Below, in pieces: positions 6,276 through 36,919 of a stretch of 47,380 bases of DNA. This stretch comes from Stramenopiles sp. TOSAG23-2 (lineage: Eukaryota): positions 1-47,380 of the forward strand of contig LT649276.1 in assembly GCA_900128395.1 (NCBI GenBank), read 5' to 3'. Under the pieces are notes generated by a model that saw nothing but the letters and a program-made list of their open reading frames with translations, made no database searches and had not been told where the DNA came from. The number at the start of each line of letters is the position of its first letter. The first letter of the stretch is position 1. Made by a program: the position numbers and the translations under genes.

Positions 6276-6423
6276 CTTCTGTTGTGGTGTATATATTTTA
6301 TTCTTTTACTATATTAAGTTACATACTCATACAACGTTGGATAATCATACTTCTGTTGTGGTGTATATATTTTTATTCTTAATATTATATTAAGCTACAT
6401 ACTCATACAACGTTGGATCATCA
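6276..6423. repeat. Diverged ~75-bp tandem duplication of the cullin 3' end and 3' UTR
   Basis: CTTCTGTTGTGGTGTATATA...ACATACTCATACAACGTTGGAT occurs twice (6276, 6350) with several mismatches. Confidence 0.85.
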
Positions 6424-8762
6424 TCACTTCGTTCTAAATAGTCTCTGGATATTAAATCTTCTATACGTGGTTTTATTAATTCAGCTTTTGCTTGAAATAA
6501 TGGTTTCAACATTTTAATCGTTTCTGCAACTAAAGCATCATGTTTAACGGTCTCTTTTTGCTTCATAATACGTACTATTGTTGCTTCCATTTGATGCTTC
6601 CTACGTTCACGCACATCACCACTTGTATCATCACGTTCTTTATCTGATGTTTTCGCAACTGCCAATGGTATACGAATGCGTCTTTGCTTATCTGAAAATT
6701 GATGATTTACACATACACGTTCAGAACTTGGTAAAGATGGACCTGTTATACCATCATTGACAGTTTTTAAAATTTTATATTTACCAAAGACTAAAGGCAT
6801 TAATTGTTTGTTCAAATCACTTATACTCATCTTCAACGCTTGTGCGATTCCAGTTGGACTTTGTGCATCCCAACGGTTGAATAACAATAATATACAAGCT
6901 TGAAATGTTGACATCGTCATTTCTCCCGTGTAACCGGTTACGGAGCCGCTATTGAAAGCGCCTTGGACGACGATTGATCCTAACGTATGTACCCATCTCA
7001 ATTTACGATTAGCTGTTCGTAAGCAATAAAACTGTTCAAAGACATCTTTCGCTATTTGTAAATCTTTTGCCATAGCAAAATCAAGATGTTTATACGATGG
7101 CCAGAATCCTTGCGTTAATACATTCACGCTTAAGGCTATTTGCAATTGGCTTGGATCAACAGGTTGTGCTTTCTTTTGCGGAGATTTATCCTCCGTAGAT
7201 GATGCAAGCTCGCCTTGGGTCTTTTCCATTAAAGATTCTGGATCAGCTAGATAATCCGTGAAATCGTTTTGAACATCTGCAGCTAATCGCATATCGTTCA
7301 ACATACCCTCATATTTAGCAGTATATTGTGCACCACAACGAGCTTTTAAATTGGATAAAACACGTTGTTCCATATCATCACCACCACTACGTCCTAATAA
7401 CAAGCGTTTTGCAAGTTGTTTCCTATAAAATTCAGAGAAAATATCTTTATCGCGCAAATACACGAAGATTTTTGTTAAATTATCCAAATATGCTAATGAT
7501 CCAATGCCACCAAAGGATTCGCCACCACGTGCAGATTTTGGCTTTGAGCGCAACGCACGATCAATAGCATCTGCAACTAATTCGGTCATCTGTTTCTTCC
7601 CTTTCACCTTCGTATTAGCTGATTTTTCAAAACCAGAGTTCATTGCCTCTTTGAATACATTGTCTCCATGGAAACATTCTTCCCCCAAACGTTCGAAGCT
7701 TGCTAATAATTTGATTAAATGATCGATTAGCTCTTTTGGATGGACAGAACTAATAGTTTGCATAACTTCTGTTGTCACATATAAACGGAAATGTTTCGCA
7801 GCAACCTCTAATCCATTCGGTACTCTGGAGTATAAACGGTATAAACGTAACAAATCTCGTCGGCAATATCCTTTCAATAGCTCTGCCATACCTCCGCTAG
7901 ATTCGTCTCCTAATACATCCTCTTGTGCATTTGTCAAAAGCTCTTCCTCGCATGCTTTCACTAATTTTGGTAATGTCGATTTACGCAAATAATAATGAAC
8001 ACGATCTGTTTCTTCTTCCAAACGTGATTCACAACGTTGTAAATAATTTGCCAAACCATATTTTGATGCCCAGTTTTCAGAATCACTTTTGCTTTCTTCT
8101 GTTGCTGCCAGTAATATTGGTTTCTCCAAGAATTCCTCATACACACGCTCATTGCCATTGCCCATGACTAAGTACATTTCCGTGACATCACGTATAATTC
8201 GTTGATCCAGTGCATTTGATACGCCGTTATTACGTTCTCGTGCAATAAGCTGTACAACAGCTTTTGCGGCTAACGTTTTGCCTTGTTGGAATACAATTTT
8301 TTGAAATGCTTTCATACCAACCGTATGCAAATCATCAATTGCTAAACGACGAACGTAAAATCTATTGACATAAGCAAACATTTTACATTGCCATTTCAAT
8401 AATAATTTATGGTTAACCCAACGTTGGTGTAATTCTGTTAAAAATGCTTCCGTAGAGTGTTTTTTTCCCATACATGCCGGTGCAACTGTATCAGTTAAAT
8501 ATTGTTCAATACTTTTACGATGAGCAAAATATAGTTTACCACTCCAATTACTTGGTGCTTTTTGCGTACACATTTTGTATATTGTAGTATACAAATCTAC
8601 AAAATCTTCATTTCTGTATTTGATATTTGAGCCACGTTCAACAATTTTTTGTAAACGTCGAATACCTTTTTTCTCTATAACTGACCATCCATCTTCAAAC
8701 GATATAGGCTTAATACCTTTTGGTCCAGGAGCAACATTCATAGCACGTGGTGCAAGCGCCAT
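6390..8762 (-). CDS. CUL1: Cullin (CUL1-like E3 ligase scaffold)
   Basis: Cullin repeats (LYTTIYKMCTQK), cullin homology domain (DKDIFSEFYRKQLAKRLL; VLTQGFWP), neddylation motif EATIVRIMK and C-terminal IEDLISRDYLER...YEYVA. Confidence 0.92.
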   Translation of the reverse strand: MALAPRAMNVAPGPKGIKPISFEDGWSVIEKKGIRRLQKIVERGSNIKYRNEDFVDLYTTIYKMCTQKAPSNWSGKLYFAHRKSIEQYLTDTVAPACMGKKHSTEAFLTELHQRWVNHKLLLKWQCKMFAYVNRFYVRRLAIDDLHTVGMKAFQKIVFQQGKTLAAKAVVQLIARERNNGVSNALDQRIIRDVTEMYLVMGNGNERVYEEFLEKPILLAATEESKSDSENWASKYGLANYLQRCESRLEEETDRVHYYLRKSTLPKLVKACEEELLTNAQEDVLGDESSGGMAELLKGYCRRDLLRLYRLYSRVPNGLEVAAKHFRLYVTTEVMQTISSVHPKELIDHLIKLLASFERLGEECFHGDNVFKEAMNSGFEKSANTKVKGKKQMTELVADAIDRALRSKPKSARGGESFGGIGSLAYLDNLTKIFVYLRDKDIFSEFYRKQLAKRLLLGRSGGDDMEQRVLSNLKARCGAQYTAKYEGMLNDMRLAADVQNDFTDYLADPESLMEKTQGELASSTEDKSPQKKAQPVDPSQLQIALSVNVLTQGFWPSYKHLDFAMAKDLQIAKDVFEQFYCLRTANRKLRWVHTLGSIVVQGAFNSGSVTGYTGEMTMSTFQACILLLFNRWDAQSPTGIAQALKMSISDLNKQLMPLVFGKYKILKTVNDGITGPSLPSSERVCVNHQFSDKQRRIRIPLAVAKTSDKERDDTSGDVRERRKHQMEATIVRIMKQKETVKHDALVAETIKMLKPLFQAKAELIKPRIEDLISRDYLERSDDDPTLYEYVA

Positions 8763-9539: not shown

Positions 9540-11414
9540 ATGGCGTTTACTGCATCTACTAGGAGTGCAGCGCCAACCAAAGAAATGTTTAGCCCAAGAC
9601 AATTAGAAGGTTCCAAAAATATGGATGGTCGTGTTATTAAAAGCAACGAAATTGGCTCTGTAGAACGATTTGCCACTACTTCACGTTCTTTCTATACTAA
9701 TGAATCGACGGGTATGGATTATACACTCCGTACTAGTGTTTCATCGTTACCCTCGCCATTAAAAGCCTATTCAACAAGCTCACCAAACGTAACTGCTAAT
9801 AAAGTTCAAATGAAAGACAAGGATAACAGACTTAATTTAATACGAGGGACAGCTGATTATGGCTTTGGCAAAGGAGAGGAGCAATATACAGGAGGAAGGC
9901 AATACAACCAAGCAAAACATTATTTAGGGGGAGTATACCAACCACCTTCATTTACCCATAGACACTATATCGATAGAGAAGGTTCAGGATATACACCATC
10001 GAAATACCATCAACAAATAAAGCAGCGAGTATGGGAGCAAGATCATATTACAGGAGAAATTCGACGAAGTCCACAACGAAAGCCGCGAGACTTAGGAATT
10101 GGAGATATAAAAGATTATAAATTGCATACGGTAAGAAGCGATAATACAAGTAGCAACAATAACAATAGTACGACAAATCGGTACGTGCCCACACCACCAT
10201 GGGTAAAGAAGAAAAAGAAATTGGAGCAGTCAAATCGACGTTATCAGGAGATGATTACTACGGGAAGTCCACGATCTAGGAGACATTTAATTACATGTAT
10301 TAAAACAACTGATGTTGCTGATAAAGAATTACGTAAACGCCCATATAAAAACGTTCCACCATTTGAACCTGAGCAATGGCCATTTGATTTCATGCCACCA
10401 CCGCAAAATAATAACGTTCAATCGATAGATACCACAACTAGAAACATGAATACAGCTAGTAGACCTCCAACTAGACCAGCAGTGTTTGACGTCGTCCATG
10501 ATGGTACTTTGCCACGCAATCCATCAGAGCAATTTTTAAACAATGTCTTTGGGCATACATTATTGCGAAGTGCAGAAGAGCATTTAATTGATCAAGTCGG
10601 AAAATTTCAGTACATTAAACATGATGATGAAAGACGAAAAATGCAATTGTGGGAAAAAAATAGAGTCATAATACAACATTTTTTGATAAATGAAGGTGGA
10701 CGAAGACACATAAAAGAAGTAGATTTTGAAACATATAAAGGTAAACATATTGGTGATATGGTCAATATGATAAGTGAGAGGGAAGATTTTGAGGAATATA
10801 TGAATTGGCTAGTCCATCATGTTTCACACGTCGCGTCTAAACAGAAAGTTGATACCATTGATCTGGATGGTGATGGCAATTTGGATTCTGAAGAAGTCTA
10901 TGCATCGTCTAGGATAGGCTATTTCAACGAGATTCAAGATCCAGAAGAGAAGAGACGGTTGCAGTTATATGAAGGGAGATATTTAATGGTATTATATTTT
11001 GTTAATAGTTTCAGGCGCAGTATGTGGAGGTTTGATCCTAGATATCGAACAATGTCACAAAAAGAAATTTTAGAGGACATGATAAATTCAAATAATTATA
11101 ATGCAATAATGAATGATTTTAGGAAGAAAGCACGTGCACTGCAAACGACATCCTCAGACCAAGTACAAACAACGATGGGTGGTAGTAAAGATTATATGCC
11201 TGTGAAAAAAGAAGTAACTTCTAGAACAGAAGAAGCAATGAACAAGGCATGCATGGACTGGGCATATGATCGAATTGTTGATCATGAAAGTGCATTTTTG
11301 AAAAAGCATCAAGGTTATTCAAATATGTCTGGGTGGGCTCACCAATTGAAACAACAAACCATGGCATTTGAAGCATTAGACAAGATGATCGAAAAGAAGA
11401 AGAAGTTTGGTTGA
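9540..11414 (+). CDS. Uncharacterised protein with one EF-hand loop between two related helical repeats
   Basis: 624-aa ORF; canonical EF loop DLDGDGNLDSEE at 10860-10895. Confidence 0.7.
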   Translation: MAFTASTRSAAPTKEMFSPRQLEGSKNMDGRVIKSNEIGSVERFATTSRSFYTNESTGMDYTLRTSVSSLPSPLKAYSTSSPNVTANKVQMKDKDNRLNLIRGTADYGFGKGEEQYTGGRQYNQAKHYLGGVYQPPSFTHRHYIDREGSGYTPSKYHQQIKQRVWEQDHITGEIRRSPQRKPRDLGIGDIKDYKLHTVRSDNTSSNNNNSTTNRYVPTPPWVKKKKKLEQSNRRYQEMITTGSPRSRRHLITCIKTTDVADKELRKRPYKNVPPFEPEQWPFDFMPPPQNNNVQSIDTTTRNMNTASRPPTRPAVFDVVHDGTLPRNPSEQFLNNVFGHTLLRSAEEHLIDQVGKFQYIKHDDERRKMQLWEKNRVIIQHFLINEGGRRHIKEVDFETYKGKHIGDMVNMISEREDFEEYMNWLVHHVSHVASKQKVDTIDLDGDGNLDSEEVYASSRIGYFNEIQDPEEKRRLQLYEGRYLMVLYFVNSFRRSMWRFDPRYRTMSQKEILEDMINSNNYNAIMNDFRKKARALQTTSSDQVQTTMGGSKDYMPVKKEVTSRTEEAMNKACMDWAYDRIVDHESAFLKKHQGYSNMSGWAHQLKQQTMAFEALDKMIEKKKKFG

Positions 11415-12381
11415 ACACAAAAAATCTCTATGTAGATCGTGATTAGCTATCATATTATCATATGTATTGAATATTTATATATATAACATTTTATATTATA
11501 TATTATGATAATCATATAATTAAATTTATTATGCCAATTTTAATTTTTTTATCTCACTAAAATCGAAGTCAGATGATACATCGTAATATTATATTTAAAT
11601 ATGACATAGTAATGCTCTGTAAAAAAATATACGACGACGACGGCTCGTGTATTTTTTCTACATAATATTTACATTGCCATTCTCCTTATAGCCTTCAGGT
11701 TACAAAGGCTGCCCTAGCCCTGACCCTGGCAAGGAAAATCTCTGGGTCCAGAGTAGGCTGGCCCAGCTGGCCCACAGCTGGCCGCTGGCCTCGCACGCGA
11801 AAATCTTTGGGGTTCCGAGAATCCACGCACATCATATCCGGGGTTTTTTTGTGTGTCCATCACACCTTTTAGCTAGCTACTGAGCATACTCGTAGTACTG
11901 TACTGTATGTATTAATATGTACAGTATTATAGACTGTAGATAATATCACCACAGCACCAGCAAAGTAGGAGCTAGCTAGCTCTAGCTACTGTAGTCTATA
12001 CTATCACCACAGGTACTGTAAGTTTACAGCACAAGTCTGCTTGTTGTGTGTGCCTGCTGCTGGCTGGGCTGCTCGTTGCTCGCTGGCTCGTGCTTGTGAT
12101 GATGGCCTGCAACCTTTGTTGCGAAGTGCATCCAAAATACTGTACCACATTGGTGGGCTGTATCTTTTATTATATACATGATAGATTGATAGATAGAGAG
12201 AGAGACAGGACAAACATAATTTATCCATTGAAGACATTCAACATATACTATACAGTTTTGAAACGTGGAACGTAAGTAAGTATACACTTATCATTCAAAT
12301 TGTTTTATTTTTTCCGTTTCTATATATTTAATTGTTTTTTATCTATTAGAAAAACAAATTTTTGAGTTAAGGAATTTCAAC

Positions 12382-15300
12382 ATGGATGCACCGGGAAATG
12401 TGGAGTTTTTGGTACAAAAGTACATGGCTACTGTGTCGCTACATTTAGGTAATACATATCCACATATTTATAATCTTTTTTTGAATACAATGGGCAATTT
12501 TCACAATAATCATATAACTGCAAAACAGTGTTTAAAAAAAATACGTCATTTGTTTCGTAATTTTCCTGCATTAATTCAAGGCTTTGAGGCAATGTATGGT
12601 ATGCTTTTAAAAAAGACTACAAAATCATCTTATGTTCATAAAGGAAAAAGAAATAGTAATAATAATAATAATAATGATAACAATAATGATAATAATAATG
12701 ACAATAATAATAATAACAATAATAATGATAACAATAATGACAACAATAATGATATTAATAATGATATTAATAATAATATTTCGGGTGCTATTGCACATAG
12801 GAATACAAAATTGAAAAACAGAGACAAATGGAAACAAGTTGTACAAAGCAAAAAATATAAGACACGGTTGGAAGCAACCTCGCAGGCTCGTAGGCAGATA
12901 AAAAGAGCGCATCACTCAGCAAATTCTCATGGGCGTACATACAAATCTCCAAAAGAGGAAAACAATGCAATACCAACTTCCATTTTACCACCGCAACATA
13001 AATTCAATGTTCAAAGCGGCAAATTGGTTGCAAAAAAAACTATAATAGTGCCTACTAGAATTGATTACGATGACTCCCTTGGTTCCAGTGTCAGTGGTAG
13101 TGGTGATAGTAGTAGTAGTAGTAGCAGCAGCAGCGACGACGACGCTGATGAAGACGAGGAGGGGGGGGAGGGGGAGGAAGAAGAAGAACACAAAAATAGT
13201 GATCATACCACAATCAAACAAGAAGATTTTTACGTAAAAAAATCTACTACTGCAAGACAGAGAGCTATGGTACTTAATAAAAAGCAGAATACTGATTGTG
13301 ATCATGATGACAAAATTGATTCTTCGATTTCTTCATCTAATTTATCAGAAGGGAATATATCACCATCATTAGATGATACGAAGCCAGCAAAAGCATTAAT
13401 GTATCCAAGAGCATATGACATTTACGATCAAATGGTAAAGAAAGGTAGTAGTGTGAGGAATAATACAGAAATTAAAGTTGGCAACACTGTTATTGAAAGT
13501 TGTGCTGTTAGAAACCTACCGAAAAAATTGAAGACGATCCAATTTCAGGATACATTAATTTCTGGGCCAATCACTGAAGCGTTGAAGAAAGCCAAAGTAG
13601 AAGAAATAGCAATTAATGAAAAATTCGATTATGAACATGATGATAATGATATTGAAGAAGAGCAAAAAAAATTAATTGAGAAGAATGTTCTCATTTCTAT
13701 GAGAAATGAGTTGGTAAAGAATATCAAGACATGCCTTGATACACTTTTTCGGGAAGTTCGACCAACAGATATATTATATGCTATAAAATTACAACATCTT
13801 GAAAATATAGAATCGATGGAAGATGGGAGAGACGAGGAGGACACTCAAAATGAAGTTTCTGATGTAGGAAAGGTTCAAAATGACATCTCCGATGATGGCA
13901 CTAGCGCTAAAATAGAAAATAAAGATGAGGCAGAAAATGCTACAATAGATGATAATAAATATAAAATTTCTCAACAGATAAAGAATGCTTTTCAAAACCT
14001 AAAAGACATGTTAATGAAATGGCATGACAGACAGTTGCGAAATAATATATTAAAAAAAGATGCAAATAATCTATTCAAATACCTAAGCTACGTTCAAGTT
14101 ATGAAGGATATTAGACGTAAAAATTGGAAATTAAGTATTGAGGATACGGAGATAACTTCGTGTCAACGTGTAAAATCGGTTGCAAAATATTTATCAGGCA
14201 AATTCAAGCAACCAGTGGCAGCAAAGAAGCGCCGAATTGTGCCTGTGGTGGGAACGCGTATTATTTACGGTCGTGGTTCGTCATACAATGACACATACTT
14301 TCATGATGCGATCCCATACCCACTTTTTCCACCAAACCCATTATCAGCACCATACATTACATTAACAAGCAATTTTTACAAAGAAGATGAAAATGTACTT
14401 CGTTTTATACCATATTTTAGCGATAAGGAACTTGAAGAGGTTGTAGATATTAATGCTTACGATGTTGTTCCAGGTGAAGAACGAACGCCAATTAGGCATG
14501 AGGTAGATGATTATTTAGCTATCCTACTCACATTTGGTCTTACAAGAGCACTGCAACACCATCAAAGTAATCTTAAAATCAAAGACAAGAAAAGACCACT
14601 TTCAACATCTAGTGGTAGAAAAAAGATAGATCGTGGTGGTGGGGACGACCAGAATGATGAAAAATTCGACAATACTAGTGATGACATTCCTATTATTATT
14701 CACAACTTGCATACATTTCGTAATATTCCAAAATATATTTTCGATATGGTGGGTGAAATTATGAATTTTGATGGCCAAATAGTTTATCATCGAATAGAAA
14801 AACTGGCATTCAAAGATCGAGGTACGTACTTCGATGGGACTGGCCTTTACAAATTGTTGGATGACTGGTCACTACATGTGAAACATAGGAGCGTTTGCGT
14901 AAAATATATAGAGGGTTCCGCATTGTCAATACAAAAGTGGAAGAAGGTATATGGCAGTGACTATATGAGACTATTGAATAACAATGTGAATATTGATCTT
15001 TCACAGGAAACAAAACTTAATAATGTAAAAAAAAATAATCATACAATTCTCAAGCCGATATCTAAAAAATTTGAGCTTTCAAAATTTTATACCTTGTATT
15101 CAAATGCGGAGACAACATTGTTAAAAACTGTCGAGAAAAAGAACAAGACAACTTCGCCAACTGTGTGTGAAAAAGATGGTGGCGAAGAAATTAAGCAAAA
15201 TCAGGTTGAATGGGTCAATGATTCTTACTCTACGTTATTTTGCCGTAGATGTTATGTGTATGATTGCCAAAAGCATGGAATTTCACAACCGCAACCGCGA

Positions 15301-16845
15301 TTTTTATCGTTTACCTCCACTGAAAATGCTTTACCATGTTCCGGCGCAAATGGTTATGGTTGTTATCTACACGACATACCGACAGAGAAGCAAATGTTCA
15401 AATATTTCAAATCAATCAATTTAAAGAATGAATATCCTGACTTTAAGAACCGTTTCCATAATATGTCAAGACGGCGCAAAAAATCAATTGCCGTTTATTT
15501 GCAAAAGCATATTGATCGAAGTGTATATCAATCATGGCTAGGGGACGATTCGACTCAATCTAATAAGCAGAAGATAGGAAGGATCTTGAATTGTAAATTT
15601 GATAGAATCATGGATCAATCCATCGTCAACAATTTAACAGATATAAATAGTAATGATAGCAAAAGCGAATTGCCTGCAAGTGCGGCTCCATTTATACGTA
15701 AGGTCTTAAGTACCACAAATGGCAACATATGTCAAGCAGTAAAAATATTAGGAAAATATTGGAATAAAAAGGAAAAAATTGGTTTGATTAATTGTCAAAC
15801 GCTTTTTGCATTTCTATGTAATTATGACTTGGAATTGATAAATCCATCAACCGATTTTTCGTATGGCAAAAATAGGAAAATGCGTAGACGTAAGAGAAAA
15901 GGGACTAAATTTTCACAACAATGGTCAAAACGTAATATTTTGCATCAATTATACCAACCTTGTGATCATCCAGGTTCGTGTACAGCAGCAAATGGTTGTC
16001 CTTGCATAGCGAACAACAATTATTGCGAGAAATATTGTGCCTGTTCGATAAAGTGCTCTAATCGTTTCAAAGGTTGTGGTTGCCATCTCAAATGCAATAC
16101 GCGTACTTGTGCTTGTTTCGCTGCAAACCGGGAATGCGATCCAGATAATTGTAATCGTTGTATTCATGATGGAAGCTGTTTAAATAGCCATAAAAAAAAT
16201 CGCAATGATAAACAACGCATAATAATGGGGCATTCATCTATCCATGGTTGGGGAGCATTTACTCCTAGTTTTATCAAAAAAGGCTCATACGTATATTCTT
16301 ACGTTGGCGAATTGATTTCTCAAAACGAAGCAGATCGACGAGGCAAAATTTATGACAAACTAAAATGTAGTTTCCTGTTTAATTTAAATGATGATCAGGT
16401 TATTGATGCCACGCGGAAAGGCAACAAATTAAAATATGCAAATCATTCACACGAATATGCAAATATGAAGCCAAAAGTTGTCATGTCAAATGGTGATCAT
16501 TGTGTGCAAATGTATGCAATACGTAATATTGAGCCTGGAGAAGAGTTGTGCTTTGATTATGGATATGGGAAAGATGTTGCCCCAGATTGGGCTAAACGTG
16601 GTGTTCGAAAATTTAAACATGGCAGTAGTAAAAAGCATGCTACAAAAGAAGTGAATGAGGATGGCGATGAGGAATTATCGGAGACTAACGGGAATTTTAG
16701 TGGTGAAAGCTTGGAAAGTGGCAGTGACGATGATGACGATAAGGATAGTAGCAGTGATAGTAGTACTAGTGCCGGTAGTGAGAGTAATATTAGTTCCAGT
16801 AGTAGCGATGATGACGAGGACGGCGAGGATAAAGATGACAAGTGA
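12382..16845 (+). CDS. E(z): Enhancer of zeste (PRC2 H3K27 methyltransferase) with N-terminal PAH-like domain
   Basis: SAL/SRM-like NFYKEDENVLRFIPY, MCSS LFCRRCYVYDCQKH, CXC (YQPCDHPG..CEKYCAC..CACFAANRECDPD) and SET (YVGELISQNEADRRGKIYD..SFLFNLN..DATRKGNK..ANHS..GEELCFDY). Confidence 0.95.
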   Translation: MDAPGNVEFLVQKYMATVSLHLGNTYPHIYNLFLNTMGNFHNNHITAKQCLKKIRHLFRNFPALIQGFEAMYGMLLKKTTKSSYVHKGKRNSNNNNNNDNNNDNNNDNNNNNNNNDNNNDNNNDINNDINNNISGAIAHRNTKLKNRDKWKQVVQSKKYKTRLEATSQARRQIKRAHHSANSHGRTYKSPKEENNAIPTSILPPQHKFNVQSGKLVAKKTIIVPTRIDYDDSLGSSVSGSGDSSSSSSSSSDDDADEDEEGGEGEEEEEHKNSDHTTIKQEDFYVKKSTTARQRAMVLNKKQNTDCDHDDKIDSSISSSNLSEGNISPSLDDTKPAKALMYPRAYDIYDQMVKKGSSVRNNTEIKVGNTVIESCAVRNLPKKLKTIQFQDTLISGPITEALKKAKVEEIAINEKFDYEHDDNDIEEEQKKLIEKNVLISMRNELVKNIKTCLDTLFREVRPTDILYAIKLQHLENIESMEDGRDEEDTQNEVSDVGKVQNDISDDGTSAKIENKDEAENATIDDNKYKISQQIKNAFQNLKDMLMKWHDRQLRNNILKKDANNLFKYLSYVQVMKDIRRKNWKLSIEDTEITSCQRVKSVAKYLSGKFKQPVAAKKRRIVPVVGTRIIYGRGSSYNDTYFHDAIPYPLFPPNPLSAPYITLTSNFYKEDENVLRFIPYFSDKELEEVVDINAYDVVPGEERTPIRHEVDDYLAILLTFGLTRALQHHQSNLKIKDKKRPLSTSSGRKKIDRGGGDDQNDEKFDNTSDDIPIIIHNLHTFRNIPKYIFDMVGEIMNFDGQIVYHRIEKLAFKDRGTYFDGTGLYKLLDDWSLHVKHRSVCVKYIEGSALSIQKWKKVYGSDYMRLLNNNVNIDLSQETKLNNVKKNNHTILKPISKKFELSKFYTLYSNAETTLLKTVEKKNKTTSPTVCEKDGGEEIKQNQVEWVNDSYSTLFCRRCYVYDCQKHGISQPQPRFLSFTSTENALPCSGANGYGCYLHDIPTEKQMFKYFKSINLKNEYPDFKNRFHNMSRRRKKSIAVYLQKHIDRSVYQSWLGDDSTQSNKQKIGRILNCKFDRIMDQSIVNNLTDINSNDSKSELPASAAPFIRKVLSTTNGNICQAVKILGKYWNKKEKIGLINCQTLFAFLCNYDLELINPSTDFSYGKNRKMRRRKRKGTKFSQQWSKRNILHQLYQPCDHPGSCTAANGCPCIANNNYCEKYCACSIKCSNRFKGCGCHLKCNTRTCACFAANRECDPDNCNRCIHDGSCLNSHKKNRNDKQRIIMGHSSIHGWGAFTPSFIKKGSYVYSYVGELISQNEADRRGKIYDKLKCSFLFNLNDDQVIDATRKGNKLKYANHSHEYANMKPKVVMSNGDHCVQMYAIRNIEPGEELCFDYGYGKDVAPDWAKRGVRKFKHGSSKKHATKEVNEDGDEELSETNGNFSGESLESGSDDDDDKDSSSDSSTSAGSESNISSSSSDDDEDGEDKDDK

Positions 16846-16888
16846 ATATTTGAATATTTGTAAAATAAAAAAAAATATTATATTAGTC

Positions 16889-16927
16889 TATCATGAGTAA
16901 ATTAAAACAATAAATTATGCGTAAATT
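16889..16927 (+). repeat. Solo copy of the dispersed 3' element that forms the 31835-32173 inverted repeat
   Basis: TATCATGAGTAAATTAAAACAATAAATTATGCGTAAATT is near-identical to the arms of the inverted repeat. Confidence 0.85.
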
Positions 16928-17039
16928 AAATTATATATCTCTCTAAATATTTATATTATATATTATGCATATCATATAAAATAGACTTCGTATTTTAAAT
17001 ATATATATGTATATGTATATATAGTATTATATACGAACG

Positions 17040-17073
<34 letters not shown>

Positions 17074-17216
17074 ATTATCTTGCCAGGCTTGCGGCGGCGC
17101 ATGAGAGCTTTATCATAGTAGGATTAAATTCTTTTCTTAGATTGAGTATTGAACCTAGGTATTCGAGCTATAACCTGATGAAAAATGTGCATACTTTTAC
17201 TTGAGTATTTATTTTT

Positions 17217-17486
17217 TTAATATTCTTCAACACCACCACGTAAAAACATTGAAGTAGCGTTAGTGCAGGAGTACACACCTGGTGGCAATCTAGCAGCATC
17301 AGCAGTTGTGTAACATGCTGATGGTACCGCTTCGCATTGACACCAAGCACATCCACCGCCAGTTTTCGTATCGGCTAAACATGATTTCTTATCTGGATGG
17401 TCTGTATTGCACGGGTCGGTTTGAGCTGATATGCATGATAATACTAATATAAACATGAATAAACACGTTAAAAATGTGTTTGACAT
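17217..17486 (-). CDS. Small secreted cysteine-rich protein (PSI-like Cys spacing)
   Basis: Hydrophobic signal peptide followed by C..C..GGGCAWCQC..C..C; 89 aa; more GC-rich than its flanks. Confidence 0.75.
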   Translation of the reverse strand: MSNTFLTCLFMFILVLSCISAQTDPCNTDHPDKKSCLADTKTGGGCAWCQCEAVPSACYTTADAARLPPGVYSCTNATSMFLRGGVEEY

Positions 17487-18042
17487 AGTTAATTCTTGAA
17501 TAATTTATTTTCTCTTTCTCGAAACTTACTACTGCCGCAAACTACTTTTTTTTGTTTCGTCCTTTTTAAAAATCTTTGATTGGTTATGATTTGTTTTATT
17601 TTTATTTTTATTTTTATATATATAATATAATCTATATAATAATAAAGCTAAAAAAAAGGCACCACGGAAAAAAAGAAGAAGATGATATTATATTATCATG
17701 GAGACGTGCAGACGTGCAGACCTGATACATGTATATTTTTATTATGTATCATATTAGGCCTTATCTTCTATTATTTTGTACAAGTACAAAAAATACCTAA
17801 TCTGGCCTATCAAATATAGCAAACACTACAAATCTACTGAGTATATGAAAAGGACTACATTAAGTACAAATATGATAGGAAATGAAAAACAGAAAACTCG
17901 GCAGAAAAACACAATTTTCAAGAGTAAAATGTTGAAAGGCCTGTGTCCATGCTAATTTCTACATGCTATTTCCATATATTAAAAAAACTTCATAGCGAAA
18001 ATTATCATTACTATAGAAAACAACAAAAAATCTCCATACTAT

Positions 18043-18174
18043 AGTTTTAAGTACTCTAACAAAAATATGTAAATTAGACTACCAAATTTATACTACAATT
18101 ATATAACAAGTTTTAAGTACTCTAACAAAAATATGTAAATTAGACTACCAAATTTATACTACAATTATATAACA
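18043..18174. repeat. Perfect 2 x 66-bp tandem duplication
   Basis: AGTTTTAAGTACTCTAAC...TATATAACA starts at 18043 and again at 18109. Confidence 0.95.
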
Positions 18175-19017
18175 CCTCAAACACAAATATTTTTGCCAAT
18201 TTTATTTTCAATTTCAGAAGTTCCGCTAAAGTGGGTACAAAAATTGAGAAATTTCATCAAATATATAAAATTTGCATTACGTCTCACAACATCATTCCCC
18301 AAATTTTGAACTCATATAAAGTTCCACATCCTTTCTTCATATATATAACTTGTATCTCTAAACTCCAACCAAAATAAATATTACATTTACATGAAACGCT
18401 AGACCCAAAGTGAATTTTTACTAAAAAATGCACATTTTTGGACACTTTTATTAAGGTTTTACAAGCCTATTCCATAGTAAGGGTACTTTGACATGCAATT
18501 GAAACGTCGTTAGTAAAGTATGTTCCTGACACTCAGTTGTCATCAACTTACTCTTAAGTTTGGCTCTATACATATCAAAATGATATCCCATACAACTTTT
18601 CTATTAAAATTTTAATTGACTTGAGATATATTGTTTCGATTATACCCCATTTTGCAATGTATTTGAACATGCCTGAAAAAGACCTAGAATTCCAGATTGA
18701 TTTTCATTCACATAAATTCTAAATGAAGCTAGAAATCTTCATTTTAAACACGAAACATAAAAATAACTTTTCTCCGAGAGTTTACGTGTAAAATTATGTT
18801 TTTAAAGAAAAGTGCTGAGATTTTTTTTAAAATCGTACGTTAGCATGGAGTTAGTATTAGACCACTTTTGCATTGAGATGGTGAAAATCATGAAAGGTTG
18901 AAAATTTTCATTGAAGTTATACATATTAGACTTTGAAACGTTGCATATCTGTTGTTTATCATGTATGCAATGTCTGTAGCTCGTGGTCTGGGGAGTTTAA
19001 CAGTAGAACCTTGCTTA

Positions 19018-19359
19018 TGAAAAATATCGTGCATTTTGATCATTTACATTAGGGTTAGAGATGCTAGCATTACTCAGCATTGCGGGGTCATACCCGTACA
19101 TGACGGGACCTCTCACTCTATTTTTCAGCACCCACATATACTCACACGAATGCCATTTCTACACTTTCCTATTATATACAAAGCTGAAAAAAAATATCGT
19201 GCATTTTGATCATTTACATTAGGGTTAGAGATGCTAGCATTACTCAGCATTGCGGGGTCATACCCATACATGACGGGACCTCTCACTCTGTTTTTCAGCA
19301 CCCACATACACTCACACGAATGCCATTTCTACACTTTCCTATTATATACAAAGCTGAAA
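19018..19359. repeat. 2 x ~170-bp tandem duplication with 3 substitutions
   Basis: AAAATATCGTGCATTTTGATC...AAAGCTGAAA is repeated. Differences: CCCGTAC/CCCATAC, CTCTATT/CTCTGTT, CATATA/CATACA. Confidence 0.95.
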
Positions 19360-20110
19360 CCAATACCTAAAAGTCGTATACTGATCACCTAAACAATTCC
19401 CGACCATTCTCCTGTCCATACACCGGATATAAGTCGAGCTTTACACCGATATGTGATTTTCAAGATCGGGTTAGTTTAGGGTTATAGACCAAAAAATGAC
19501 CAAAATATTGAAATTTTTTCAGAAATATCACCAAAATACAATGTGTCGATTTTTTCTATCTAAATCTTCTACAAATTAATCCGTTATAAGACACACCTCT
19601 TAACACATGTCTAACGGAAAGAAGTACATGAATATTTTGATCTAATTATGTTTCAAATGAAACTTATACTGTAACGAATTTTTTTCAAAATGGTGATTTT
19701 TTTCAAATTAGTATGGACATAGGCTGGACTAAAACTGGAAAATTTGAAAATTACAAAAGGTAGTTTTTTACATATACAGATACATGTCTTTAGCAAAATA
19801 AGTATCCACGATCAATTTGTATATGTTTAGTAATAAATAAACGAAATACACCAATATTCTTGTATCTACTTCATATTTGAATAACCGTTAAAAGTTGAAA
19901 AAAACGCGTAACCCTATAGCTGTAACACTACTTGATAGGTGGATTTCACTTGTAGTGTCGGCTCTGTCTCACACAATTTAGTACAAAAATATTATACTAA
20001 ATGTTTGATAGGTTTCAATATTCCAAAAACGATATTTACAATTTATGTAAAAAATGACATTTCCATCTAAAATATGATATTTCGTAATGATATCATATTT
20101 GGTGGTATTC

Positions 20111-20253
20111 ATATGTAATTTTAAGAAAAGGATGAAATTGTTAAAATGACGAGTAATTTTTACATGTATTTTGTGTTTGTATTTATATGTAATTTTAAGA
20201 AGATGATGAAATTGTTAAAATGACGATGTAATTTTTACATGTTTTTTGTGTTT
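20111..20253. repeat. Diverged 2 x ~74-bp tandem duplication
   Basis: ATATGTAATTTTAAGAA...TTTTGTGTTT starts at 20111 and again at 20185. Confidence 0.85.
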
Positions 20254-20960
20254 TATAAAATGGATATTTTTATAATTTAATGATTTCTATGAATTTTATA
20301 ATTTATTTTAGTCATTTCGGTAAATTAATAATTTATTTAAGTACAAATTTTAGTGTAAAAATTTGATGCCAGAAATTCTGCTATCCCTAATTTCTGAAAA
20401 CAAGAAATGTCAAAATTATTTTGCCAATTGATAGGAAAAATAGTATACTAGTGGAGCCTAAGTTTCAAAAGGTATTTTCACTGTTTTTCGTTTGTTTTCA
20501 TGTAATGAAATGAAAAATCCATGTGATGGTAGATGAAAATAGAAAATTTATGCAGTAAAAGCTGAAAATGATAAAATTTTGATGAAAATTTCCCTGTTGA
20601 TCACCAAAACGCTATTAATTGAATTTTTTTCCCATTGTTATTAGTTTTAAAATGGCTTAAATCCCCAGCTTCCCAAAAAGACCTGAAATCTCATTTTCCC
20701 AAAAGAATACGAAATAATTATATTTAAGTACGATTTTTCAATCATTTGATAGACTACCTACAGGTTTTTAGGAGTTTAAGGAGTTTGGTGAAAAACAGCA
20801 CGAAGTACTCGTAGCATACAAATAGGCTTACGAAGTTGACTTTATTTTTGGGGGTGCGTGGTGGTTAACCAGGTTAACCTTCTTTTTTTTTTTTTTTTTA
20901 ATAATTAATAAAAAAATTTTTATTACCATACAATTCTAGAACAATACTTGTTTGTGATTA

Positions 20961-20990
20961 TTAGACTCTTTCTTTCGAGAAAGAGTCTGA
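20961..20990 (+). other. Stable hairpin with TTCG tetraloop upstream of the GPI-PLD gene
   Basis: TTAGACTCTTTCT-TTCG-AGAAAGAGTCTGA: 11 Watson-Crick pairs plus 2 outer pairs. Confidence 0.6.
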
Positions 20991-21098
20991 CGACGCAGAC
21001 TAACTTGTGATAAACATATATAATAATCACATAATTTAGATCGATATTTGTTTGTGTTTTAGCATCAGCTACATATCAATAATTACCCGTTGTAAAAA

Positions 21099-23960
21099 AT
21101 GTATGTACGATTAGTTTTATTCATACTTGTTACATTTTACAATTACGGTGGTATTTTGGCTGCTGGAATGTTAGCACATACTTTAGTTGGATATCGTACT
21201 ACCAAATATTTTGCTGAAGTTACACCAACTGCATCACCCAGAAATTTTAAAAAATACAATGATGCAATCATAAATAATTTTGAAGCTGTTGATGGTGGAA
21301 GCGATTTTCCAGATTTTTTATACGCATGTGGCAAATACAGTGATCATCATGATGCCGCTGAAGCGGCACACTGGCCACCGTTTCATGCTGCGTTCATCAA
21401 TTATATTCGATCATCTGTTCCTAATTTCAGAGAGGATGACTGGAGTGAGGAAACAAAAAAATTAGTTGCATTTCTATATGGTGTAGCTGTGCACTACAAT
21501 GCAGATGAAATATGGGAAGGTCTCACCGATGAACTTGGGAATGGATATGGATTCATTCGTGCATTGGCCATTATGAATGAAAATGCACCCGGAACCAGCG
21601 GAGCATTAGAAGGTCCTGCCAACAATGCAGCTGATTTTTATATCAGTTATAACTATGATTTAGATCATATCAAACCATGGGATAGATATTTTCCACTGGA
21701 AGATATGGTTAACGTATTTCATTTAACGCCAAAGAATAGTACTAATAATTTTACAGATGTTACATTGCAATCGTTAAAAAATTGTAGAATACTGTTTGAC
21801 TTAGGATTGTGGGCGGAGAAAGTGTTTGGAAAATTCATGTTTCATTTGTATGTTGCCGAAATCAAGCAACTACCATTTGTCGCAGAAAATCTTTTGAATT
21901 ATCCCATCGGTGGACTAGACTACATGTCTTTAAGGGCTAATTATGTATGGCAACGAATTGCAAGATGGCTTGATGTTGGAGCACCTGCAATGCCCCCACC
22001 AAATGTAGATGATGATGATCAAGACGATCGAACAAATCACAAAATTTTCCAATCAATGAAAGAATTTCTTCCATATACTAGTAAAATAAAAAAATTTATT
22101 ACCTCGTTGAAAATTAAGAACATGCATGCTGGAGAGTTATTTGATTTTATTGATATAAAAAATGTCAAAAAAGGCATATTTTTCAAAAAGAATAATACAA
22201 TACTAGTAACAGAAGAAATGGAAGATGTTTTATGTAATATGCTTTTAAAATTGATCCAAATAAAGCTTAATTACAGTATTGACGTAAAAATTTATAGACG
22301 GAGAGATTTAATTCCAAAAGAATCATTGTTAAAATTTAAAGGTAGTAGCTTTAGAACGTTTGATAGCATAGCCAGCGATTCAACAATTGTTGGTGGTGTT
22401 GAAAATGTTGGTTATACTGGCCACGCTATTGCATCCGGAGATTTCAATGATGATGGCATACAAGATTTTGTATACAGTGCTTATGGCGAAGGCATTAAAG
22501 GCACTTCACCTCAGTCCGGAAATGTTTATATTTGTTATAGTGGCATTGATTGCAATGGAACGAATCAAAAATCACTACAAGTATTGTATGGGGATAAGTT
22601 GAAACAAGAACGATTTGGATTTACGTTGGAAGTGTTGGATTATAATCTAGACGGAGTAGATGTAAGTAAAAAGTAATATTTTTTCTTTTTGGTCCTTCTA
22701 ATACTAAAAGTTTCTCTAACATTGTATATTCGTTTATTTCATGTTTGAAAACTTCAATAGGATCTTGTTGTTGGTGCGCCGCTTTCTTCTTTTCAAAATT
22801 CTGAAATTCCCGTCCCGTTTGATTCACAACCTGACTATAGAGCTTACGGAAAAATTTATATTTATTATGGGCGAAAAGGTACCGGATTAAGTAATGGAAA
22901 TCGTATTGATTTATATACAAAGAAACGTTTTAGTGTGATAGGTTCCGTACTGTCTAAAGGTGATGTTGACTTAGACGGTAATGACGATCTAATTGTAGCG
23001 GCTCCATACTCACCAATGGATGTTAAAAATAATAGTAAAGTATTTGAACCTTTAACAGGATCACTTTATGTTATAAAATCTTCACCAACGAATACAAATA
23101 AAAACGAATTTAGTACCGACGGTGTGACAAGCACGTATGATATATCCACCATTGCTTATGCAGTGATAAATGGTGGATCGAAATATGATTTATTTGGCGC
23201 GTCAATATCAATTGATAACGAACGGGTATATGTTGGTGCTCCAGGCCATCGTGCTCAATACAAAGGAGACAGTTCTAACACAACAACTGTTGGATGTATA
23301 TATGGATATAAGCTACCCTTAATACCTTCAAATCATGAAAACAGTGATTTTAGTATTATATCACCAATTCTCCAAATAATTGGTAAGGATAGATTAGGGG
23401 AATTTGGAAAAGCAATAGCGAAACCTCTTGGGCACAATTATTTAATAGTAAGTGCCCCAGCATCTACGATAAGTGAAAAAGTAAAGCAAGCTGGATTAAT
23501 TTATGTTTTCGAAAATATCAATGGAACGAATGGAATTGTTGACTTATTCAATTCACCTTTGATATCACTCTCACCTGTATCATACAGTGTCATTGCAAGC
23601 TCTACTTCATTTGCCAGATTTGGTCAAAAATTATTTATGCATGATATAGATAATGATGGCAATTTAGATTTGTTAATTTCATCACCAATGTTTACAAGCG
23701 ATATGGCAATTTTTGAAAAAAGAGAACTTGGAGCAGTTTATGTATACAAAAACTTCGACCATTTCTTTCTGGAAAAAAATCTAACATCAAATGACGCAAG
23801 CATAATTTTGTATGGACGTAATAGAGGTGGACGTTTTGGCTCTGCAATTTGTAGTGGCAGAAACAGCAGTAAGAATAATTTGTTGATGATTTCATCTCCA
23901 TATGCGAGTGTAAATAATTTAGAGATGAATGGCATAGTAGAACTATACGTGGATGTATGA
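21099..23960 (+). CDS. GPLD1: GPI-specific phospholipase D-like protein (Zn-dependent PLC domain + FG-GAP repeats); exons 21099-22661 and 22761-23960, ~920 aa
   Basis: Signal peptide, GSDFPD, EAAHWPPF, FLYGVAVHYNAD and several FG-GAP repeats. Splicing joins LDYNLDGVD to DLVVGAP in frame with the 22935 ORF. Confidence 0.85.
22662..22760 (+). other. Spliceosomal intron (99 nt, phase 0)
   Basis: GTAAGT donor at 22662, T-rich body, AATAG acceptor ending at 22760. Removal restores an FG-GAP repeat. Confidence 0.9.
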
Positions 23961-24036: not shown

Positions 24037-26172
24037 TTAGTTTGCTGAAGGAAGCTTTCGTGATGCCTCCCTTGTTACCTTATTTACAAAAAAATCCGAC
24101 CCATCAATATGAACATGTCTCTCCCAACCTTGTGGTGGTGCCATGCGTTCTCGACTTTGACTTGATTTCCTAGATTGTCTTGACAATGATCTAACTAATT
24201 CCATCGGTCCTCCAGCATGATTGTTTTTCATTGTAGCGGAAGTTGACATTCCTAGTTTCCTTCTGTAGCCAAATCCTACAACAGGTGATTTGTCATGTTT
24301 TATTGCTGGAATAGGAACAGTATATTTATTCCCTATGTGACTTGCCGATCGACTCTTTCTTAATGTGTCAACTGGATGAAAAATTGAATCACGAGATCTC
24401 TTCTTATTATTAGAATGTTTTGTTGTTTCCAATTTACTGTTGGTGTTTTTAGTACTACGTTTCAATGCTAACATATGTGCTTTTAGCTCTTTTTCCTGTT
24501 GTTTTGAATATACCTCGTCTTGAATCAATTTCTCTTCGCTAGTTGAGATCGCCTTTTTATTTTCTTTTAGCATGTACAATAACTTTAATCGCATAACTTC
24601 TTTTTCATATTCCATAATTGCTTGTTTTGATGGTCCTAAAACCATATCGTTCAGGTTGCCGATTGGCATTCGTATGGGTTTTGGATCACTGTCAAGTTTA
24701 TACATAGGATTCATTTTTTTAGTTTTAGGGTCCATTTTCAAACGTTCCCCAGAACCTTTTGATCTTTGACGAGATATTTTCATACCTTCTTGAACCAGCG
24801 TAGCGTCAGAATGATCCCAAGGGAGAAGGATGCTACTGCCTTCTTTTTTAATGTAATCATCTTCAGCTATATTATTACTAATAATGACGCTATTATTGAC
24901 ATCGATGGGCTGTGTGTCTTCCTCTTTTTGTTCATTTGCAGGATTTTCTACATTACCAATAATATCTTTGAGAGGATTCTTATTGTCATCGTTGCTTAGA
25001 CTTACTTCCTTTTCTTCCTTCGATTCATTGGCTGACTCAGATTTGCTTACTGCACGTTTAATTTGAGCTGCTTTTCGCGTGGGACTAGTAATGTTTAGTT
25101 CGCTAGCATTTCCATATATGCGCTGTCTTTCAAGTTCACTTACTGCGCCTTCGATATCTATGTGATTATTATTTTTTCGTTGTGGTGAGCCTTTCCTTAT
25201 TTGATTCATTGATAAGTTTGGTTTACTTCTACCGCTTTTAATAGACTTCTTCAGCATAAGTGAATCATCATTTCCTATCGTTTTAAATCCCGGAGACCCA
25301 AGTTCTTTACTCCAATCTTCTAGTAATCCTGGTGTTTTGCTATGTTTTAACTTCGTGGCCGGAGCGGATGATGGGCGTTTTGTATATATTTTTTTATCCA
25401 TTAAAGTATCTTTGATGGATGGCTTCGTCATTTCCCACTCTAAATCCCTTGGACTTGTATTCATTAAATCAATCTTAAAATCACCAGTTTTAATTTTTGA
25501 TCTTGTGACAGTAACTTTATATTGTTTTACATCAGTTTCTCCTTCCGTAATACCCATTATCATATTTTTATTATCATTAATTTTATTTTTGCTTGATTGT
25601 GTGACAATTCTTTTCGTTGGTTCTGATACAACATATGGCTTACGACGAACTTTTATTTTCTTTCTTCGTTTTATTTTTTTCACTTTCAGTGGCGATTGAT
25701 ATCGTTTTATACTATTTAATCTACTTTCTTTTTCTGCTTTCACTTGGTCTAATGATTTATGAGTAATACCAGGTCTAAAAGACAACATTATCAACAGCCG
25801 TTGCTTCTGTTTATTTACCATTTCGGTCATACGCTTTTCCCTTGCTTTTAATACTGTTCCATATAATTCTGCAGACTTAAGCTCTTCGCTCATGCTATTT
25901 TCTTCGGGCCAATGCTTTTGTACCGGCGTATGCGCAACTCCCTTCCGTATACCAGAAGATGATCTACTAATCCTAAAAGTTTCACCTTCAATAACAGGCC
26001 TTGGAGGCCAAGTGAATTCTTCAGCTACTTCGTTTTGAAGCACCATCGCTTGTTTTGGAAATGAGACTAAAACTTTCTTCACAAATCCGTCATTTGTAAC
26101 TTGGACAGCCCCCAGCCCAGTGTCACTTCCAGCATCCATATGATCATCTAAGATCTCGCTATCATGAATCAT
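24037..26172 (-). CDS. Low-complexity basic protein with C-terminal WW-like domain
   Basis: 711-aa ORF ending PPQGWERHVHIDGSDFFVNKVTREASRKLP; the second Trp is replaced. Confidence 0.7.
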   Translation of the reverse strand: MIHDSEILDDHMDAGSDTGLGAVQVTNDGFVKKVLVSFPKQAMVLQNEVAEEFTWPPRPVIEGETFRISRSSSGIRKGVAHTPVQKHWPEENSMSEELKSAELYGTVLKAREKRMTEMVNKQKQRLLIMLSFRPGITHKSLDQVKAEKESRLNSIKRYQSPLKVKKIKRRKKIKVRRKPYVVSEPTKRIVTQSSKNKINDNKNMIMGITEGETDVKQYKVTVTRSKIKTGDFKIDLMNTSPRDLEWEMTKPSIKDTLMDKKIYTKRPSSAPATKLKHSKTPGLLEDWSKELGSPGFKTIGNDDSLMLKKSIKSGRSKPNLSMNQIRKGSPQRKNNNHIDIEGAVSELERQRIYGNASELNITSPTRKAAQIKRAVSKSESANESKEEKEVSLSNDDNKNPLKDIIGNVENPANEQKEEDTQPIDVNNSVIISNNIAEDDYIKKEGSSILLPWDHSDATLVQEGMKISRQRSKGSGERLKMDPKTKKMNPMYKLDSDPKPIRMPIGNLNDMVLGPSKQAIMEYEKEVMRLKLLYMLKENKKAISTSEEKLIQDEVYSKQQEKELKAHMLALKRSTKNTNSKLETTKHSNNKKRSRDSIFHPVDTLRKSRSASHIGNKYTVPIPAIKHDKSPVVGFGYRRKLGMSTSATMKNNHAGGPMELVRSLSRQSRKSSQSRERMAPPQGWERHVHIDGSDFFVNKVTREASRKLPSAN

Positions 26173-34195: not shown

Positions 34196-36919
<2,724 letters not shown>

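Follow-up and report, generated by a model that had tools for sequence, protein, structure and literature searches.

An E(z) methyltransferase with an N-terminal Sin3 PAH1-like domain encoded by an uncultured stramenopile

The stretch of DNA analysed here comprises 47,380 nucleotides of Stramenopiles sp. TOSAG23-2 (contig LT649276.1 of assembly GCA_900128395.1, positions 1 to 47,380 of the forward strand; called the window in the following) and carries, at 12382..16845 on the forward strand, a gene for a protein of 1487 amino acids (P0001) that joins a PAH domain of the type known from Sin3 to an E(z) histone methyltransferase, the catalytic subunit of Polycomb repressive complex 2 (PRC2). Two other, divergent environmental organisms encode proteins of the same architecture (P0003 and P0127). 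With moderate confidence, we favor the explanation that P0001 is an E(z) protein carrying its Sin3 PAH1-type domain on a long disordered tether and that this domain docks a helix of a partner protein, which would bring the methyltransferase to its targets.

That the N-terminal domain is a PAH domain is the concurring result of sequence, predicted fold, and residue features, in line with a preliminary description of this DNA that had recognized a PAH-like pattern in a string of residues corresponding to K13 to F68 of the translation. In a Pfam scan of the whole protein, PF02671 matches aa 28-70 with 27.9 bits (E 2e-6) and with the first 90 residues alone reaches 32.9 bits (E 5e-8), both above the curated cut-off of 21.3 bits. 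A phmmer search of aa 1-90 against the sequences of the PDB found 13 distinct ones with E-values of up to 10, every one of them from Sin3 or Pst proteins (including one MBP-Sin3 fusion) and led by residues 227-282 of yeast Sin3 with a whole-sequence E-value of 1.1e-9 and identity at 21/57 aligned positions, as counted from the alignment. We call the domain PAH1-like because the first repeat of yeast Sin3 scores 26.9 bits in this search and the second only 10.4 bits. Similarly, every cluster among the rows listed by a protein-language-model search of the ESM Atlas with aa 1-85 carries a PAH domain. The hydrophobic positions of core and cleft are invariant across P0001, P0003, and P0127 (V18, L22, Y30, F33, L34, M37, F40, L57, F58, F61, P62, L64, and F68 in P0001 numbering).

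The predicted structure agrees with this assignment. AlphaFold2, given aa 1-90 and an alignment of six rows that amount to effectively three different sequences, produced four helices (residues 6-25, 27-41, 47-57, and 62-84) with a predicted local distance difference test score (pLDDT) of 85-90 across aa 11-70 and a mean of 77.6 over the whole model. When this model was compared to the PDB with Foldseek, rows 1-12 were Sin3 PAH domains or chains of Sin3-histone deacetylase (HDAC) complexes, PAH1 of mouse Sin3A and Sin3B being among the top rows; the first three superimpose with a root-mean-square deviation of 1.2-1.5 A over 59-65 columns and template modeling scores of 0.75-0.82 normalised to the target. 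VIA-align, which is independent of Foldseek, places Sin3-family PAH domains at ranks 1-6 among 48,161 chains, followed by harmonin-homology domains. Neither of the two structural outcomes that the preliminary description had named as refuting, a missing PAH match and a missing four-helix fold, was thus observed. Membership of P0001 in the Sin3 family itself was considered and rejected, given that the protein has a single PAH domain and that the Pfam scan at E <= 10 found no second one, no HDAC-interaction domain, and no match to the Sin3 co-repressor or Sin3 C-terminal families.

The joining of PAH and SET domains is not an accident of gene modeling, as evident from the open linker between them and from the two divergent relatives of the same architecture. 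The uninterrupted frame that had been claimed to connect the two domains indeed runs through all 1487 codons, and its first ATG is preceded by an in-frame TAA at 12277. The 465 codons of the linker contain 0 in-frame stops, compared to counts of 24 and 94 when the same stretch is read in the two remaining forward frames and to a mean of 39.1 in shuffled versions, of which 0/2000 remained open; likewise, the 165-codon linker of L002, the locus that encodes P0003, contains 0 stops compared to a mean of 9.6 in its shuffles. Within the linker of P0001, an AAT-rich tandem repeat at 12652-12778 (period 6/15, around 21 copies) codes for a run of Asn and Asp. L001, from another assembly of this species, aligns in one piece over 12109-16930 of the window (98.6% identity) without any break in the frame. 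Between the two assemblies, the AAT-rich repeat differs in length by a net 6 nt, and net changes in the length of the ORF are limited to one of -6 and one of +6 nt, each within a low-complexity stretch, whereas indels of lengths not divisible by three occur in both flanks of the ORF; this argument for a maintained frame draws on only two in-ORF events. In P0001, P0003, and P0127 alike, the first PAH helix starts no more than 12 residues after the first methionine.

The stretch is present in at least 22 sequencing runs of 11 studies, all marine or seawater, of which 13/22 are on record as RNA. Four of them were aligned to the window: X2 and X5, which are poly(A) metatranscriptomes from one sample, X3, which is RNA from another study, and X1, for which the RNA label is a guess. 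RNA contigs of X2, X3, and X5 give patchy coverage of the gene between 12807 and 16875, including two that lie inside the linker (12807-12997 and 13204-13411), ca. 1.2 kb 5' of the conserved E(z) body, and none of the four runs shows any joint inside the ORF. The first methionine after the PAH domain, M296, is encoded 3' of the contig at 12807-12997. X1 covers 12109-12636, though with its guessed RNA label, and one of its loose ends resembles what we take to be a cDNA template-switch adaptor.

Judged from its domains and from the catalytic residues that it keeps, P0001 is a complete histone methyltransferase of the E(z)/EZH type that is competent for catalysis. Pfam recognizes the MCSS zinc motif (PF21358, 31.3 bits at a cut-off of 27), the Cys/His columns of which are invariant in two alignments of relatives, the preSET_CXC domain (PF18264, 30.4 bits at a cut-off of 23.3), and the SET domain (67.2 bits); the match of PF21509 to the first cysteine cluster, at 23.4 bits, falls below its cut-off of 27. 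An alignment to human EZH2 spans aa 931-1397 (E 4e-69), and counting along it pairs Y1307, A1343, A1353, and Y1393 with the residues that we take to be Y641, A677, A687, and Y726 of EZH2, using an offset of +8 for chain 9koh_I relative to 5hyn_A as read from the match table. Three of these (Y641, A677, and Y726) had been proposed as retained before, together with the SAL, MCSS, CXC, and SET domains, and all of them are found. For the SAL (SET activation loop), the evidence comes from hhalign, which aligns aa 649-701 with residues 111-169 of animal EZH proteins (probability 94%, E 1.4e-7) in an alignment that extends into the start of the SRM. A conserved helical stretch precedes the SAL in all three PAH-bearing proteins and includes a long helix (245-298) in the model of P0003, whose body matches human EZH2 of solved PRC2 structures with an E-value of 3e-30.

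Of the two relatives with the same architecture, P0003 (1003 aa) is collinear with P0001 and is 37% identical to it in the PAH domain, 32% in the N-terminal body (from P0003 aa 268 onward), and 53% in the catalytic part, with a PAH score of 20.8 bits that is just under the Pfam cut-off of 21.3. Its gene is one uninterrupted ORF (4052..7063 of L002) on a contig with 45% GC that has no other gene in common with the window. P0127 (1053 aa) is more divergent and rich in alanine, and it carries a PAH domain at aa 25-66 (26.8 bits) along with MCSS, CXC, and SET. These two are the only matches to the PAH segment among the 269 other proteins from two E(z) searches, although some of the 269 are fragments without their N-termini. 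Pfam at E <= 0.01 detects PAH in 5/60 aligned relatives (the window protein, P0127, P0003, and two near-identical cluster mates) and not in the other 55, and PF02671 is absent from the precomputed domains of the 120 E(z)-search matches listed. At the level of DNA, only L001 and L002 among 35 related metagenome loci match a profile built from the three PAH sequences. Seven other loci reach the SAL with at least 900 nt of upstream sequence, and in-frame stops close the N-terminus in 7/7; Pfam found PAH in 0/5 of those examined, though introns and the small profile limit such negatives. A search of the ESM Atlas with the whole of P0003, which covers clusters of at least 50 members, yielded nothing but ordinary E(z) clusters without any listed PAH domain, and a word-index search with aa 1-90 in proteins of 817-2603 aa gave 11 candidates, none of them scored, which is uninformative given that it needs shared 5-mers. 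All E(z) relatives examined other than P0127 and the group of P0003 lack PAH; the preliminary description had stated that PAH domains are not known from animal, plant, or fungal E(z) proteins. Long N-terminal extensions without PAH also exist, as illustrated by an environmental E(z) protein of locus L006 (ORF 147-3872) with a 483-aa extension that has no Pfam match. As a separate observation, the E(z) relative P0135 (1043 aa) matches Meckelin with its C-terminus (88.5 bits) and probably represents two merged gene models.

How the tethered domain might work can be outlined by analogy to Sin3. PAH domains have been described to take up one amphipathic SID helix with an LxxL motif in a hydrophobic cleft, and each of them has its own partner specificity despite the common fold (both from passages of PMC6168491). 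PRC2, in turn, is described in part of PMC8788455 as having no DNA-sequence specificity of its own and as depending on partners. The cleft of the P0001 PAH domain would thus capture a short LxxL-type amphipathic helix in a partner protein, as Sin3 PAH1 does, and the docked partner would most likely be a repressor that binds DNA or a chromatin factor of another kind. In this way, the methyltransferase complex could reach particular loci via its own catalytic subunit and not only via accessory subunits, and H3K27 methylation would be delivered to these targets. The disordered nature of the tether is predicted from its equivalent in P0003 (aa 79-207), which has no predicted structure at a pLDDT of around 30, and the built-in recruitment role is inferred from what Sin3 PAH1 domains do.

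Several observations weigh against this interpretation. The structural matches of the PAH model are weak by their own statistics, with a best Foldseek E-value of 0.015 and none at or below 0.001 (which is common for domains of this size) and with VIA-align Z-scores of 8.0-9.8 for the Sin3-family domains and around 7 for the harmonin-homology domains, where values below ca. 13 are unsafe by themselves for helical bundles. In two comparisons between strains, 10/35 and 8/28 changes are synonymous compared to 19.5% expected at random, which is too weak a bias to build on, and two replacements (K52E and H56R) fall into the PAH domain itself. No RNA contig of X2, X3, or X5 lies on 12382-12681, and coverage elsewhere mostly has a depth of 1-6 and is zero in many bins. 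Of a transcript joining the PAH codons to the SET region, for which the preliminary description had suggested to look, the part from the linker (12807) into the E(z) body is therefore represented by poly(A) RNA contigs without joints and the PAH codons are uncovered, and a shorter isoform starting downstream of the PAH domain may exist. This gap is not evidence of absence because coverage is thin along the whole gene. In the enzyme half, hhalign with full profiles and with N-terminal sub-alignments aligned only the SAL and the C-terminal half but not the EED-binding helix or domain of EZH2.

The last of these points concerns phylogeny. A CXC-SET tree was built from the 233/270 scored proteins that covered at least 190/220 query residues, of which 121 were kept; the 112 left out are animal and plant E(z) proteins from one of the two E(z) searches, of which seven others were retained as named landmarks. 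P0001 and P0003 are sisters in this tree with a support of 100, but a quick free search did not join P0127 to them. A tree constrained to join all three is nevertheless better by 40 log-likelihood units than this quick free search and has a p-value of 0.85 in the approximately unbiased test (p-AU). A single origin of the fusion is compatible with the data, is not rejected, and is part of the best tree found, with neither one nor two origins being proven.

Among alternative explanations, the one that survives best is that the PAH domain acts inside the complex by clasping a helix of its own linker or of a PRC2 subunit, so that it would regulate activity through auto-inhibition, dimerisation, or assembly and have no part in targeting. 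Given that conservation of the canonical EED-binding helix could not be detected, an altered mode of assembly is conceivable, and P0001 (aa ~441-460) and P0003 (aa ~208-228) have in common a segment of the linker that is helix-like and contains an LxxLF-type motif. This segment is, however, not conserved in P0127 and has low confidence in the model, no position of the linker is meaningfully conserved across P0001, P0003, and P0127, and we consider such an internal role unlikely. A predicted complex of the PAH domain (aa 1-80) with the linker segment aa 425-485 obtained a score of 0.01 and a mark of 0.34 in a run without controls and counts neither way.

It seems still less probable that the PAH domain ties the enzyme to Sin3-HDAC biology by sharing the partners of Sin3 PAH1, be they repressors or Sin3-associated proteins, with deacetylation and H3K27 methylation being either delivered to the same loci or in competition there. 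The likeness of the domain to Sin3 PAH1, with yeast Sin3 227-282 as the best match by sequence and PAH1 of mouse Sin3A/B among the top structural rows, would fit this idea, but the variable specificity of PAH domains with one and the same fold, as described in the passages of PMC6168491 cited above, means that this likeness does not predict common partners. Finally, a gene-model artefact or dispensable relic, with a protein starting 3' of the Asn-rich linker and PAH codons that are untranslated or decaying, could draw on the two non-synonymous strain differences in the PAH domain and on contigs from three RNA runs of two studies that begin only at 12807, yet it is highly improbable in view of linkers that are open far beyond chance in both P0001 and L002, a PAH core that is conserved at the same N-terminal position of three divergent proteins, a next methionine (M296) that lies 3' of transcribed linker sequence, and RNA coverage so thin along the whole gene that its absence proves nothing.

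Returning to the reading of the PAH domain as a docking module for targeting, a more far-reaching proposal that we regard as possible but on balance doubtful is that the fusion arose once, in marine protists that are uncultured and form a small clade, and that PRC2 is targeted in these organisms via its catalytic subunit by the helix-in-cleft code of Sin3. Repressors with SID helices would then recruit H3K27 methylation directly, possibly with deacetylation in parallel, and would do so without the accessory subunits of animals.

The coordinates of all features are listed in Table 1, including those of the genes that surround the PAH-E(z) gene in the window.

Table 1. Features of the PAH-E(z) gene and of its surroundings, in coordinates of the window.
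Feature	Residues (aa)	Coordinates	Strand	Basis and remarks
Whole PAH-E(z) gene (P0001)	1-1487	12382..16845	+	Single unbroken ORF, 1487 codons + stop (standard code)
PAH domain	6-75	12397..12606	+	PAH1-like four-helix bundle (predicted); Pfam match proper aa 28-70 = 12463-12591
Low-complexity linker	76-540	12607..14001	+	Composition: rich in Asn, Lys, Ser, Asp, Glu; contains Asn/Asp-coding repeat 12652-12778
Start of conserved E(z) body	541-648	14002..14325	+	Helical; position where EZH2 has EED-binding helices; collinear with P0003 and P0127
SAL (SET activation loop) motif region	649-701	14326..14484	+	hhalign and phmmer sub-alignment to EZH2
MCSS zinc motif	947-972	15220..15297	+	Pfam PF21358 (Ezh2_MCSS)
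CXC (pre-SET) cysteine clusters	1189-1260	15946..16161	+	Pfam PF18264 at 1231-1260, PF21509 at 1189-1209
SET catalytic domain	1289-1394	16246..16563	+	Pfam; alignment to human EZH2; holds Y1307, A1343, A1353, Y1393
C-terminal tail, Ser/Asp/Glu-rich	1406-1487	16597..16842	+	Composition; P0003 and P0127 without such tail (alignment)
RCC1 repeat protein with ephrin-receptor-like repeats		89-4807		Pfam
Cullin		6390-8762	-	Pfam
Zinc-dependent phospholipase C-like protein with FG-GAP		21099-22676		Pfam
DEAD-box helicase with CCHC zinc knuckles		34232-36919		Pfam
IQ-repeat protein with WW domain		37673-41851		Pfam

The window has a GC content of ca. 33% and long intronless ORFs, of which those at 9540-11414, 24037-26172, and 27019-29697 have no Pfam match; Rfam has no match anywhere in the window. 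Relatives of the cullin reach 85-89% identity, a EukProt entry 67%, and matches from named organisms (a haptophyte, green algae, and red algae) at most 37%. Just 5' of the PAH-E(z) gene lies a GC-rich island (11680-12110) with up to 65% GC per 100 nt compared to 17-38% elsewhere in the intergenic region; it occurs only once in the window. Neither of the other two assemblies of the species follows the window upstream of 12109: the contig of X1 lacks 12022-12108 and has many indels at 11586-12021 whose lengths are not divisible by three, and the first 96 nt of L001, which ends at 16930, are unlike the window. On the other side of the gene, short RNA contigs with many loose ends pile up in the AT-rich 3' flank at 16889-16937 to very high summed depths (97.9 for X2 and 153.2 for X3 in the bin 16819-17015), which may mark the region of a poly(A) site or reflect unspecific AT-rich matches. 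Further downstream, a small Cys-rich ORF on the reverse strand (17217-17486, 89 aa) has a hydrophobic, signal-peptide-like N-terminus, and 17146-17400 is covered by RNA contigs from X2 and X5 to a depth of 14-25. The following ca. 3.6 kb (17500-21099) have no ORF of at least 150 aa in a window that is otherwise full of long intronless ones.

A PAH-bearing E(z) protein is not described in the open-access and bioRxiv literature searched, as judged from titles and abstracts, and papers that combine the PAH phrase with E(z) or PRC2 terms are, by title, cancer studies or general reviews. Neither PAH nor Sin3 is mentioned in a preprint on H3K27me3 in Phaeodactylum, in the review of PRC2 evolution PMC8788455, or in the main text of a phylogenetic profiling study of PRC2 (PMC9018016), the supplementary domain tables of which (Fig S5 and Table S10) may list such an architecture. 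We view the protein as a new combination of known domains with a known enzyme that has a clear functional implication and represents an architecture that is genuine and conserved, though rare. Its scope is that of three lineages with uncultured hosts and a function that we infer. While the targeting of PRC2 is well studied in animals and plants, it is almost unknown in unicellular eukaryotes, and a module for helix docking that is embedded in the enzyme itself and binds in a well-understood manner offers a concrete handle by predicting short LxxL-type helices in its partners.

In its catalytic half, P0001 resembles canonical E(z), EZH1/EZH2, and CLF proteins, with SAL, MCSS, CXC, and SET in the same order and the catalytic tyrosines and alanines kept, and a profile alignment of 375 columns gives 41% identity to animal EZH. 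Among named organisms, the proteins closest to this half come from pelagophytes and a choanoflagellate, including those of Chrysophaeum taylorii (P0123, 554 aa) and Salpingoeca rosetta (P0128, 508 aa), which are 51-52% identical to P0003. These belong to the short E(z) proteins of stramenopiles and choanoflagellates with ca. 500-550 aa, and at the related loci L003, L004, L017, and L028, in-frame stops close the N-terminus ca. 100 aa before the SAL, with no PAH found by Pfam in L003 and L004. Unlike canonical E(z), P0001 has an N-terminal extension of ca. 540 aa (ca. 245-270 aa in P0003) that opens with the PAH domain, and Pfam at E <= 10 finds no match to PRC2_HTH_1, the EZH2 WD-binding domain, SANT/Myb, or the plant HTH_CLF_N.

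The PAH domain shares its Pfam family, its predicted four-helix fold, and the pattern of core and cleft residues with PAH1 of Sin3 proteins (yeast Sin3, mouse Sin3A/Sin3B, and S. pombe Pst1). Unlike Sin3, which has three or four PAH domains, P0001 has only one, and it is attached to a methyltransferase and not part of a scaffold for a deacetylase. The protein shows that the docking domain of Sin3 has been put to new use on a histone methyltransferase, a link between two repressive systems that are usually treated apart.

The closest parallel in terms of proposed logic comes from plants, where VAL1/2 and TRB proteins bind the catalytic subunits CLF and SWN, so that a DNA-binding repressor directly contacts the catalytic subunit and places H3K27me3 (as outlined in parts of PMC8788455), and where VAL1 also binds SNL proteins, the Sin3-like proteins of Arabidopsis (PMC9266683). 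A repressor contacting the catalytic subunit is also what we propose for P0001. Unlike in plants, where the contact surface of CLF and SWN is not a PAH domain, the stramenopile protein would achieve this with a dedicated helix-docking module that is built into the enzyme.

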